Shown here piece by piece: positions 2,917-16,166 of a DNA stretch of 21,745 bases. The notes below the pieces were generated by a model that saw nothing but the letters and a program-made list of their open reading frames with translations, did not search any database and had not been told where the DNA came from. The translations under genes and the position numbers were made by a program. The first letter of the stretch is position 1, and each line of letters opens with the position of its first letter. Origin of the DNA: a virus (lineage: Duplodnaviria > Heunggongvirae > Uroviricota > Caudoviricetes); IMG/VR virus record IMGVR_UViG_3300029102_000023, one strand, 5' to 3'.

Positions 2917-3049
2917 TTTTTGGGACTCCTGGCTGATTAAGTATGTCGATAAGGCGTTTCCATCCGTCACGTAATTTACGGGTGATTCGTTCAAGTAAAG
3001 ATTCGGAAGGGCAGCCAGCAACAGGCCACCCTGCAATGGCATATTGCAT
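2885..3049 (-). CDS. cIII: CIII protease inhibitor (FtsH/HflB inhibitor), 54 aa
   Basis: Hand translation of minus strand from ATG at 3049: [54 protein letters not shown], stop TAA at 2885-2887; below the ORF-track length threshold. Confidence 0.85.
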   Translation of the reverse strand: MQYAIAGWPVAGCPSESLLERITRKLRDGWKRLIDILNQPGVPKNGSNNYGYPD

Positions 3050-3121
3050 GGTGTGCTCCTTATTTATACATAACGAAAAACGCCTCGAGTGAAGCGTAAT
3101 TGGTATGCGGTAACGCCGCGC

Positions 3122-10595: not shown

Positions 10596-11119
10596 CTATC
10601 AAATCAAATACGCCAGCACACGACAAGGACTGCTGGCAAACGCCGCTTTGGCTTTTTGATGCACTGGATATTGAGTTTGGATTCTGGCTGGATTCGGCAG
10701 CGAGCGACAAAAATGCTCTGTGCGCTCACTGGCTAACTGAGGACGACGACGCGCTCAATTCTGAGTGGGTAAGCCACGGTGCAATCTGGAATAACCCACC
10801 GTACAGCAATATCAGGCCGTGGGTGGAAAAAGCCGCTGAGCAGTGTATACAACAGCGACAGACGGTAGTGATGCTTGTGCCAGAGGATATGTCTGTCGGA
10901 TGGTTCAGCAAGGCTCTGGAGAGTGTTGACGAAGTTCGTATTATCACTGATGGACGGATTAATTTTATCGAACCATCGACAGGGCTGGAGAAGAAGGGAA
11001 ACAGCAAAGGCTCCATGCTGCTGATTTGGCGACCGTTCATCAGTCCTCGACGGATGTTTACTACCGTATCCAAAGCGGCATTGATGGCGATCGGGCAGGG
11101 CGTCAGGAGGGCTGCATGA
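10592..11119 (+). CDS. Phage DNA N6-adenine methyltransferase (orphan, Dam-like family), ~175 aa
   Basis: Contains the N6-adenine MTase catalytic motif NPPY (IWNNPPYSN); ATG at 10592 overlaps the ninB stop (ATGA); occupies the ninC/ninD position; no adjacent restriction endonuclease gene. Confidence 0.8.
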
Positions 11120-11292
11120 GACGACAGCGACGAAGCATCACCGACATAATCTGCGAAAACTGCAAATACCTTCCAACGAAACGCTCCAGAAATAAACGCA
11201 AGCTAATCCCAAAAGAATCTGACGTAAAAACCTTCAATTACACAGCCCACCTGTGGGATATCCGGTGGCTAAGATATCGTGCGAGGAAATGA
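11116..11292 (+). CDS. ninE: NinE, 58 aa
   Basis: [58 protein letters not shown] resembles lambda NinE; ATG overlaps the methyltransferase stop (ATGA). Confidence 0.85.
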
Positions 11293-11636
11293 CAATGGAT
11301 TATTCACAGTTAAGTGATTTTGAAATTAACAGAATGGTAGGAGACATAATTTTTAAAGGCCTTTGGGCAAGTAAACCGGAAACATCAGGGAATAACACCA
11401 ACAAATGGTATTACGGAAATGCTGATACAACTTTTGAGCCATTAAATCATTTGCCTGACTACTGCAATGATCCGAGCGCTTCATGGCCGATTATTGAGAA
11501 ATACAGGATTTCTATCTTAGACCAGTTAACTGAATGGTGTGTGGATGCAAAAGGCGTAAGCCCAATATTTGATACCAGACCTCTCCGCGCCGCCATGATT
11601 GTCTTTCTCCTGATGCAGGAGGCCAATAATGCTTAG
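11289..11636 (+). CDS. Hypothetical nin-region protein, ~115 aa
   Basis: ORF (M)[71 protein letters not shown]...; ATG at 11289 overlaps the ninE stop (ATGA), alternative ATG at 11295; family not recognised. Confidence 0.55.
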
Positions 11637-11823
11637 CCCATCTCAATCCCTTCAATACCTGAAAGAAAGCATAGAGCGGGCTTCAATGTGCACAGAGTGG
11701 ATTCTATCTAGGTTTAGCGCATACAGAAGATTGCCGGTAAAGGGCATGCCAAGCAAGTCGATGCTGCATATGCAAAAGAATGCGCGCTGGAAGGTATGGC
11801 GAGAACACAGGTTATGTGGCTGA
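11629..11823 (+). CDS. Hypothetical small ORF, 64 aa (possibly part of a frameshifted ybcO-like gene)
   Basis: ATG at 11629 overlaps the end of the preceding ORF; a different frame (11718-11846) encodes ...[25 protein letters not shown] and ends in TGA overlapping the rusA GTG start, suggesting coding potential split across two frames. Confidence 0.3.
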
Positions 11824-11842
11824 AAGAGGGGGTTATTAAGGC

Positions 11843-12205
11843 GTGAATACCTACAGCATCACATTACCCTGGCCTCCGAGCAATAATCGCTATTACCGCC
11901 ATAATCGCGGGCGCACGCACGTCAGCGCAGAGGGGCAGGCATACCGCGATAACGTCGCCCGAATCATTAAAAACGCAATGCTGGATATCGGCCTGGCTAT
12001 GCCTGTGAAAATCCGCATTGAGTGCCACATGCCGGATCGCCGTCGCCGTGACCTGGATAATCTGCAAAAAGCCGCTTTTGACGCACTCACTAAAGCAGGT
12101 TTCTGGCTGGATGATGCTCAGGTCGTTGATTACCGCGTTGTGAAGATGCCTGTTACCAAAGGTGGGAGGCTGGAACTGACCATCACCGAAATGGGGAATG
12201 AATGA
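11843..12205 (+). CDS. rusA: Holliday junction resolvase RusA, 120 aa
   Basis: [100 protein letters not shown]... matches E. coli prophage RusA; start codon is GTG. Confidence 0.95.
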
Positions 12206-12342
12206 TGTTTGAGTTTAATATGGCAGAACTTCTTCGCCACCGCTGGGGGCGTCTGCGCTTATATCGTTTCCTCGGTTCTGTTTTGACCGATTACCGAATA
12301 CTGAAGAATTACGCCAAAACCCTGACAGGAACAGGAGTATGA
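12202..12342 (+). CDS. ylcG: YlcG-like small protein, 46 aa
   Basis: Hand translation: [46 protein letters not shown]; ATG overlaps the rusA stop (ATGA); matches the DLP12 rusA-ylcG-Q order; below ORF-track threshold. Confidence 0.75.
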
Positions 12343-12999: not shown

Positions 13000-14082
13000 T
13001 TAGAACTGATAAACCAGACCTACAGCGACGATGTCGTCGGTATCAATACCAGCTGTTTTGGTAAACTTACTATCGTCAATTAAGTTGATTTTGTAATCAA
13101 CAAAAGTGGACATGTTTTTATTAAAGTAGTAAGTAGCACCGACATCGACATACTTGACTAAGTCTCGGTCACCATGAACACCAAGGTCTTTACCTTTTGA
13201 CTGAAGGTAAGCAACAGATGGACGCAGACCGAAGTCAAACTGATATTGTGCTACTGCTTCAAAGTTTTGTGCTTTGTTTGCAATATGGTTATTACCAAAA
13301 ACGGTCATATTCTGAGTTTCAGAATATGTGGTAGCCAGATAGATATTGTTCGCATCATATTTCAGGCCTGCAGCCCATACTTCCGCATTTTTGCCGGAGG
13401 CATTGAATTTGCTCTTACCATAGGCGACCTGACCGTCAGTGCGATCTGATTTAGCATAGGTTGCACCCACGCCGAATCCTTCATACTCATAAGTAGTGGA
13501 GAAACCGAAACCATCACCATTGGCTTCAGTTACGTCAGTGCGGTCATTTTTACCCTGATACTGAGCAGCAAAGTTCAGGCCATCGACCAGACCAAAGAAG
13601 TCGTTGTTACGATAAGTTGCAACACCAGTAGTGCGACCAGTCATGAACACATCTGTTTGGGTCCAGGTATCACCACCGAATTCTGGCAGAACGTCAGTCC
13701 ACGCACCGATGTCGTATGCTACACCGTAGTTACGGCCGTAATCGATTGAGCCGTAATCACCAAATTTCAGGCCTGCAAATGCAAGACGGGTTTTGTCTTT
13801 GGAAGAACCTTGAGATTCAGCACGGTTGCCTTTGAATTCATATTCCCACTGACCGAAACCAGTCAGTTGATCGTTGATTTGGGTTTCACCTTTGAAGCCA
13901 AGACGGGCATAAGTAGTATCACCATCATCTGCATCATTAGAGGAGAAGTAGTGCTTGGCATTAACTTTCCCGTATAGATCCAGCTTGTTACTGTCTTTAT
14001 TATAAATTTCAGCTGCCTGAGCAGACATCGCCATCAGTACTGATGCAGCTACAGCAGAAATTGCCACTGTTAATTTTTTCAT
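13000..14082 (-). CDS. nmpC: Outer-membrane general porin (OmpC/OmpF/NmpC family), prophage-encoded, 360 aa precursor
   Basis: Signal peptide [23 protein letters not shown] then [23 protein letters not shown]... and C-terminal ...VAVGLVYQF (terminal Phe, beta-barrel signature); antisense between Q and the lysis genes as in DLP12. Track ORF start at 14142 is an upstream in-frame extension. Confidence 0.93.
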
Positions 14083-14450
14083 TGTACGCCCTTTTTTTGA
14101 ACTTTTATTAAAAAATGATGTCACTGCGCGATAAATATTCATCTAATCAATGTGATTATTTCAAGATGTAAGTTTTAGTTTCTCATTTAATTTGTGAAGT
14201 AGATCTCTATTTTTATCTGAACCTTTTCTATCTAATCCTATTCATGGCTCTTGTCTGAACAAAAATAAATCTATTAGCTAATTTATATTAATGGCACTTA
14301 TTTATAAGTGCTCTATAATTCTTTAGCTTAATTTAAACAAACTAAAAATAACATCGGAAATTATTAACTGGTTATTTGTTGAAGTTTTCTTATGCATTTG
14401 TGGTGGTGTTTTGAACACTCGGTGGCATTCTCACAAATATCATTTAGTAG

Positions 14451-15872: not shown

Positions 15873-16166
15873 TTATTGTGAGCAATACACACGCGCTTCC
15901 AGCGGAGTATAAATGCCTAAAGTAATAAAACCGAGCAATCCATTTACGAATGTTTGCTGGGTTTCTGTTTTAACAACATTTTCTGCACCACCACAAATTT
16001 TTGCTGCATCGACAGTTTTCTTCTGCCCAATTCCCGAAACGAAGAAATGATGGGTGATGGTTTCCTTTGGTGTTACTGCTGTAGGTTTGTTTCCAACAGT
16101 AAACGTCTGTTGAGCACATCCTGTAATAAGCATTGCCAGAGCGGCAGAAAACAACATTTTTTTCAT
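15873..16166 (-). CDS. bor: Bor lipoprotein (serum-resistance moron), 97 aa
   Basis: MKKMLFSAALAMLITGCAQQTFTVGNKPTAVTPKETITHHFFVSGIGQKKTVDAAKICGGAENVVKTETQQTFVNGLLGFITLGIYTPLEARVYCSQ; lipobox ITGC; matches lambda Bor. Confidence 0.9.
   Translation of the reverse strand: MKKMLFSAALAMLITGCAQQTFTVGNKPTAVTPKETITHHFFVSGIGQKKTVDAAKICGGAENVVKTETQQTFVNGLLGFITLGIYTPLEARVYCSQ

Follow-up and report, generated by a model that had tools for sequence, protein, structure and literature searches.

Remnants of ninF and ybcO between ninE and rusA of a lambdoid prophage: a probable mosaic join

The DNA analysed here, a stretch of 21,745 nucleotides from the IMG/VR record IMGVR_UViG_3300029102_000023 (termed “the window” in the following), carries a short composite interval between the nin gene ninE and the Holliday-junction resolvase gene rusA. 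In this interval, an intact ninX gene is followed by the first 21 codons of ninF, 65 nt of filler DNA and the last 29 codons of ybcO (Table 1). The gene upstream, ninE, starts with an ATG that overlaps the TGA of a Dam-type methyltransferase gene (ATGA), and the nin genes in general are non-essential, densely packed and linked by ATGA overlaps (PMC8022706). The mosaicism of lambdoid phages is attributed to relaxed and possibly also illegitimate recombination, where the former is homologous, and includes exchange with the prophage DLP12 (PMC3945230).

In this study we map the breakpoints and the missing gene parts of the interval, document the presence of the joint throughout the population and analyse the remnants, which lack coding constraint. 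The ninE-rusA interval is very probably an ordinary mosaic join in a lambdoid prophage, annotated before and harbouring no frameshifted or recoded gene.

Table 1. Features of the ninE-rusA interval (positions in the window)
Feature	Position	Strand	Evidence
ninE	11116..11292	+	Pfam NinE E=1.4e-40; RefSeq “NinE family protein”, same coordinates
ninX, intact, 113 aa	11295..11636	+	PF10765; PHROG 444; RefSeq WP_000386643.1
ninF' (P22-type ninF codons 1-21)	11629..11691	+	tblastn; blastn; PHROG 672 positions 1-22/58
Filler, 65 nt	11692..11756	no strand	between ninF' and ybcO'; similar to neither ninF nor ybcO alleles
ybcO' (DUF1364; last 29 codons + stop), pseudogene remnant	11757..11846	+	blastn; tblastn; 3g27 match; RefSeq
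ORF64, 64-codon chimeric ORF	11629..11823	+	ORF listing; blastn/tblastn composition
rusA ribosome-binding site AGGGGG	11827..11832	+	aligned to annotated rus site, phage 82 X92588.1
rusA, Holliday-junction resolvase gene	11843..12205	+	PF05866 E=6.9e-23; RefSeq rusA

Building blocks of the interval

The anatomy of the interval was defined by blastn comparison with three reference arrangements. Window positions 11105-11691 are 94.4% identical at the DNA level to the genes ninE-ninX-ninF of the P22-like phage ST64T, and positions 11757-12250 are 99.2% identical to the segment of E. coli K-12 DLP12 that extends from the 3' end of ybcO through rusA to ylcG. The 65 nt in between are similar to neither of these blocks. 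A P22-type block comprising ninE, ninX and the start of ninF is thus joined via foreign filler to a block of the DLP12/phage-82 type, which contributes the end of ybcO, rusA, ylcG and quuD. Within positions 11289-11846 we detected no promoter-like or terminator-like site (counts in the scanned region did not exceed those of shuffles), no Rfam family, no stable RNA fold and no meaningful repeats.

The first gene after ninE had been described, from the letters alone, as an ORF of about 115 aa of unknown family. The ORF is indeed present, with an ATG at 11289 and a TAG at 11634-11636, yet its family is known: the product is NinX (PF10765). RefSeq places the start at the ATG at 11295 (113 aa), and the alternative ATG at 11289 (115 aa) overlaps the stop codon of ninE (ATGA). 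The protein matches PF10765 (Phage_P22_NinX) with 62 bits (cutoff 22.6; E=8e-17) over profile positions 1-114 of 114, and PHROG 444 with E=3e-44. Its gene is approximately 94-95% identical at the DNA level to ninX of ST64T, and the two proteins are nearly identical across 115 residues. All motifs of the family are retained, namely the N-terminal MDYSxLSDFEIN, the central DYCN..WPII and the C-terminal helix, which correspond to invariant or nearly invariant columns in an alignment of 32 sequences. The gene also occupies the place typical of the family in the nin operon, as it immediately follows ninE and precedes ninF, with start and stop codons that overlap.

The native start of ninF is preserved in the remnant and overlaps with the stop codon of ninX; the ATG at 11629 lies within ...AATAATGCTTAG. 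Using ST64T NinF as a tblastn query, residues 1-21 are found at 81% identity, and the rest of NinF is encoded nowhere in the window. At the DNA level, homology to ST64T stops at 11691. The P22-like phages ST64T, L and ST104 share the order ninE-ninX-ninF and the overlapping start and stop signals with the window. However, their ninF is complete, encodes 57 aa with a four-Cys motif (C-x2-C...C-x2-C) and is followed by other genes, whereas ninF of the window ends after codon 21.

Downstream of the filler, a segment in a third frame had been interpreted as the C-terminal part of a possibly frameshifted or decayed ybcO-like gene. This segment is open from 11718 to a TGA at 11844-11846, and the overlap of the TGA with the GTG start of rusA at 11843 is confirmed (GTGA, 11843-11846). 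Decay is the correct description: positions 11757-11846 represent the last 29 codons of ybcO plus the stop codon, with 99% DNA identity to the matching segment of K-12 DLP12. A tblastn search with K-12 YbcO identified residues 68-96 (11757-11843) as the sole part of YbcO encoded in the window, and residues 1-67 yielded a best match of E=0.65 in any frame. Since residues 1-67 are missing from all six frames, the gene is truncated at its 5' end by a recombination or deletion joint and is not frameshifted. Correspondingly, the gene could not be restored by any indel, and the DNA upstream of 11757 consists of the ninF 5' end and unrelated filler. The remnant matches residues 67-96 of the solved 96-residue YbcO structure 3g27 (E=7e-13) and reaches 17.7 bits against PF07102, below the cutoff of 29.9 and over profile positions 62-92 of 92 only. 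According to its published classification, DUF1364/YbcO belongs to the His-Me-finger nuclease domains (PMC5714182). This single domain is incomplete here, as the N-terminal two-thirds are missing.

Directly downstream, rusA encodes a product that matches PF05866 with 82 bits (cutoff 22.8) over profile positions 1-123 of 124. The location of ybcO' immediately upstream of rusA, with its stop codon on the rusA start, agrees with that in DLP12 and phage 82, and the likeness to these two extends to the GTGA overlap, the rusA ribosome-binding site and the downstream genes ylcG and quuD. The site annotated as the rus ribosome-binding site in phage 82 maps inside the retained ybcO tail. DLP12 has the gene order ninE-ybcO-rusA-ylcG-quuD, and its 99.2% DNA identity with the window extends rightwards from 11757; phage 82 has the order orf56-orf96-rus-orf45-Q. 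In both, a complete ybcO (orf96) of 96 codons comes straight after ninE, whereas the window keeps codons 68-96 only and, unlike either, carries ninX, ninF' and the filler between ninE and the ybcO remnant.

Distribution and history of the joints

The segment 11100-12250 is found with 100% identity in many independent complete genomes, including those of CFT073, Nissle 1917, UTI89 and ATCC 11775. A total of 562 complete E. coli genomes cover at least 80% of this segment, and the joint itself is present in 584. In addition, the arrangement occurs in 27 phage records, which contain the same 572 bases at an identity of at least 98.4%. A sequencing or assembly artefact is ruled out by the recurrence of the identical sequence in many independently finished genomes and in these phage records.

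The locus has been read in this way before, as RefSeq annotation gives the same interpretation. In CFT073, ATCC 11775, Nissle 1917 and other genomes, RefSeq/PGAP annotates a “phage protein NinX family protein” (WP_000386643.1) and, at the equivalent of window positions 11757-11846, a DUF1364 domain-containing pseudogene described as “incomplete; missing N-terminus”. The 64-codon frame that starts in ninF' (ORF64) receives no call in the current RefSeq/PGAP annotation of chromosomes. Older records and phage records label it “hypothetical protein” or “protein ninF”, and under the latter name it has been deposited on at least 1000 contigs. This name is misleading, because just 21 of the residues are NinF.

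To trace the origin of the filler, we scanned phages, IMG/VR and a set comprising one genome for each species. The filler is known in two contexts, both of them in E. coli, i.e., the present arrangement and Stx1-converting phages or EHEC prophage remnants; in the scan of one genome per species it was found in E. coli only. The copies in the Stx1 phages AU6Stx1 and SH2026Stx1 and in EHEC prophage remnants are approximately 88-90% identical to the filler of the window and share the ninF'/filler joint after ...ERAS, and they adjoin a reverse-strand insert. Otherwise the two arrangements differ substantially. The Stx1 type lacks ninX and has a ninF remnant of the lambda type after ninE, whose frame mostly contains a TAA at codon 4. 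Its filler continues into a non-coding stretch of approximately 380 nt, after which come a reverse-strand ORF of 590 aa (no Pfam match) and, in place of ybcO'-rusA, HNH-ninG-ninH-Q.

Two sources of the filler were considered and rejected. A divergent ybcO allele is not supported, as the 42-aa peptide of frame 0 aligns with intact YbcO only from residue 11-14 onwards (around 11748-11757) in a tblastn search of phages. Nor does a divergent ninF allele account for the filler: at blastn sensitivity, none extends past 11691 in E. coli genomes or phages. Minus-strand ORFs (34 aa) that cross the filler were rejected as coding sequences, since most of the differences from the Stx-type copy alter their amino acids. 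Over positions 11663-11763, the window shows 12 differences from the Stx-type copy, which are distributed over the codon positions as 5/3/4.

Since the ninF'/filler joint is common to both arrangements, it is probably older than the joint between filler and ybcO'. The latter falls into a 7-nt patch, which reads GTCGATG in the window, AACGATG in the Stx type and GTTGACG in ybcO, such that each parent agrees with the window at 5 of 7 positions. Judged by this patch, the filler/ybcO' joint looks like an illegitimate deletion at partial microhomology. In the proposed course of events, the ninF/filler joint shared with Stx1 phages would have formed first, and a later deletion would have connected the filler with ybcO. 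All 85 IMG/VR loci belong to one of the two types or to small indel variants thereof, and no intermediate arrangement occurs among them; the order of events is therefore one that we infer. The filler of the present arrangement varies at 1 site in 65 nt, compared to 12-15% in the flanking remnants. This low diversity would be expected if the filler had arisen once and recently and had no other alleles with which to recombine, and a constraint on the nearly invariant filler at the level of DNA or RNA is also conceivable.

Coding capacity and proposed working of the remnants

The 64-aa ORF noticed in another frame is present as described, with an ATG at 11629 and a TGA at 11821-11823. Since residues 1-21 of NinF and residues 68-96 of YbcO are the sole encoded parts of these proteins, ORF64 is by its composition a three-part chimera, in which the NinF codons are followed by the filler as read in this frame and then by the ybcO tail outside its own frame. 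Its match to PHROG 672 is confined to positions 1-22 of 58. The length of ORF64 is unremarkable, because after 21 NinF codons the chance of 43 more open codons is approximately 0.15 at the frequency of stop triplets in the window.

Coding constraint was assessed in 75 copies spanning ninX to rusA, which represent 48 haplotypes. Variable sites at codon positions 1/2/3 number 6/4/15 in ninX and 17/9/34 in rusA, and this excess at third positions indicates purifying selection. No such signal is seen in the remnant frames: in the ORF64 frame the corresponding numbers are 2/3/3 for the ninF' part and 3/2/3 for the ybcO' part, and in the YbcO frame of ybcO' they are 4/3/4. Non-synonymous and synonymous variants occur at a ratio of 13:5 in ORF64 versus 38:50 in ninX and rusA combined (Fisher p=0.037), and the ratio in the YbcO' frame is 8:4. 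The finding that none of the 75 copies of ORF64 has gained a new stop codon is expected about half the time without selection, given approximately 17 variable sites. The intact ninX is thus subject to purifying selection, whereas ninF and ybcO, of which codons 1-21 and 68-96 alone survive, are dead remnants.

Based on the arrangement of starts, stops and the ribosome-binding site, the region may work as follows. Transcription of the early-right operon would proceed across ninE and ninX and enter the scar, with ninX being translated normally. Ribosomes would probably start at the kept ninF start and continue across the filler into the ybcO tail, which is out of frame, thus producing the 64-residue chimera. 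Translation of ORF64 would end 20 nt before rusA, which would then be translated from its own ribosome-binding site within the ybcO tail. The 90-nt tail was most likely kept because it contains this site and the start context of rusA, and because it forms the left homology edge for the exchange of rusA modules between phages. Both the translation of ORF64 and the reason for the retention of the tail are points that we infer from the sequence. ORF64 is probably translated as a by-product and would have no function of its own.

We consider it improbable that ORF64 is instead a functional small protein, i.e., a NinF variant whose C-terminus is new and basic and which is kept for the benefit of the phage. 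Such a role would agree with a frame that is uninterrupted in all 75 copies, that still begins with the native start of ninF and its coupling to the ninX stop, and whose sole length variant, seen in one copy, is an in-frame duplication of 18 nt and not a frameshift; it would also agree with the frequent deposition as “protein ninF” and with the viability of the phages that carry ORF64. However, the product contains NinF for its 21 N-terminal residues only, retains Cys21 alone of the four-Cys motif and ends with 22 residues that are ybcO read out of frame. Moreover, the conserved Glu13 of NinF is replaced by Gly in most copies, the variants accumulate without the third-position excess seen in ninX and rusA, and ORF64 has no match in Pfam, NCBIfam or PADLOC. 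The sister arrangement in Stx1 phages has the stop at codon 4 in most copies, and PGAP does not call the frame on chromosomes.

Somewhat less likely still is a composite reading, according to which the scar is not inert and, separately, NinX acts as an anti-defence or host-takeover factor, a role raised in the sequence-only reading. Ribosomes from the ninF start would here be delivered to rusA, either by termination and reinitiation from the ORF64 stop 20 nt upstream, or by a low-level -1 slip at A_AAG_GGC. If this were true, the invariant filler and the always-open ORF64 would be maintained for the translation of rusA.

A programmed -1 frameshift had also been proposed to explain the split coding potential, and we regard it as very unlikely. 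By shifting from ORF64 into the YbcO' frame, ribosomes would produce a fusion that ends at the GTGA and restores the translational coupling to rusA; the move requires a -1 shift between 11718 and 11821. The frame-0 stop does overlap the rusA start, and one X_XXY_YYZ heptamer, A_AAG_GGC at 11739-11745, lies in the right frame past the last preceding frame-0 stop (11715-11717). Yet a heptamer of this type is expected approximately 0.14 times by chance in the overlap of about 35 codons (1/256 per codon), and this one offers a poor A-site codon; in E. coli, G_GGC is not known to slip efficiently in the A site. Stimulatory elements are lacking as well, given that the fold of positions 11625-11860 is no more stable than those of shuffled sequences (MFE z=+1.2) and no SD-like stimulator is located upstream. 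The YbcO' frame is free of purifying selection by the counts given above, and in one copy (L034) the run at window positions 11828-11832 is longer by one G, which breaks the GTGA overlap of this frame. In addition, rusA possesses its own ribosome-binding site, and the fused product would hold no complete domain. Finally, although the three-frame pattern outwardly resembles a frameshifted gene, the probability of a sequencing or assembly error, or of a point frameshift recently acquired by an otherwise complete ybcO, is negligible, given that phage isolates and hundreds of complete genomes, sequenced independently, contain the identical sequence and that two-thirds of ybcO are missing in every frame.

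NinX and the wider setting of the join

Remote-homology searches and structure prediction, as suggested in the sequence-only reading for the 115-aa protein, provided a confident fold model but no analogue in the PDB. The AF2 model, calculated from the 32-sequence alignment, has a mean pLDDT of 86 and a pTM of 0.79. From the N-terminus onwards, it predicts a helix, a variable middle part of low confidence, a second helix, a sheet of three strands and, at the C-terminus, a long helix. A Foldseek search of the PDB yielded no fold analogue (best E=0.33, TM 0.31 or lower), and in BFVD the model matched uncharacterised phage proteins only. Weak PDB sequence matches to thioredoxins (E=0.04-1.8) were discounted, as thioredoxin-like domains reach a TM of less than 0.2 in the fold search. 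NinX, a widespread phage protein, matches no NCBIfam family and none of the defence-system families in PADLOC, and the literature on NinX/DUF2591 is limited to gene-table entries without functional data.

Beyond annotation hygiene, the importance of the locus is little. It serves as an example of how joins and deletions build up the nin regions of lambdoid phages and leave truncated genes behind. The records of mEp332 and PhiR11_1, both of which carry the joint, give K-12 MG1655 as the host, and in phages whose records list a laboratory propagation host, ybcO and ninF are dispensable. Deletion fusions recur in nin regions, as exemplified by P0030, in which residues 1-87 of NinX are fused in frame to a YbcO-like C-terminus. 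P0030 thus likewise represents a fusion by deletion of nin genes that left a chimeric ORF; it keeps most of the YbcO-like domain and still matches PF07102, whereas the joint in the window is out of frame and retains the tail only.

Variability of the filler and its setting in Stx1 phages

The filler, a 65-nt segment (window 11692-11756) that lies between the gene remnants ninF' and ybcO', is nearly invariant among copies of the window-type arrangement, with one variable site in its 65 nt, while 12-15% of the sites are variable in the adjoining remnants of the same copies. In Stx1 phages the filler is adjoined by a reverse-strand ORF of 590 aa, which occupies the place expected for ninF and yielded no Pfam match. 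The loci concerned are the Stx1 phage AU6Stx1 (L006) and the EHEC prophage remnant L004. The frame running through ninF' and filler contains a TAA at codon 4 in 35 of the 39 Stx1-type copies, and it is open over 51 codons in 4/39.

Natural indel variants and deletion fusions

Individual copies of the locus harbour small insertions or deletions. In the IMG/VR locus L091 the ninF' part is longer by 18 nt through in-frame expansion of TCAATCCCT, a 9-nt repeat, so that the chimeric ORF of ninF', filler and out-of-frame ybcO' comprises 70 codons in this locus. In one natural copy, L034, the G-run within the rusA ribosome-binding site (equivalent of window 11828-11832) is longer by one G, and one other copy has lost 1 nt within ninX, at window 11511.

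Two proteins encoded on other E. coli contigs represent additional nin-region deletion fusions: NinX residues 1-87 are followed in the same reading frame by a C-terminal part resembling YbcO in P0030 and by a PF11134 domain in P0033.

Further features of the prophage

Compared with the CFT073 prophage copy (L001), the window lacks an IS3-family insertion between ren and ninB (L001 261-1474). The left 4 kb of the window are unlike Nissle 1917, in which ISEc52 and a truncated integrase gene take their place. An Rfam scan of the entire window revealed no family other than the cIII thermoregulator element Lambda_thermo.

Features and their coordinates
Feature	Location	Strand	Remark
Lambda_thermo	window 3004-3062	-	Rfam, 88.5 bits, E=1e-20
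590-aa ORF	L006 2955-4727	-	borders filler
18-nt expansion in L091	equivalent of window about 11645-11662		within ninF'
OmpC/NmpC-like porin moron	window 13000-14142	-	between quuD (Q) and lysis genes
iss moron (bor-like serum-survival lipoprotein)	window about 15873-16166	-	past lysis cassette

The late region of the window accommodates two inserted genes (morons), the porin gene and iss, both on the reverse strand.
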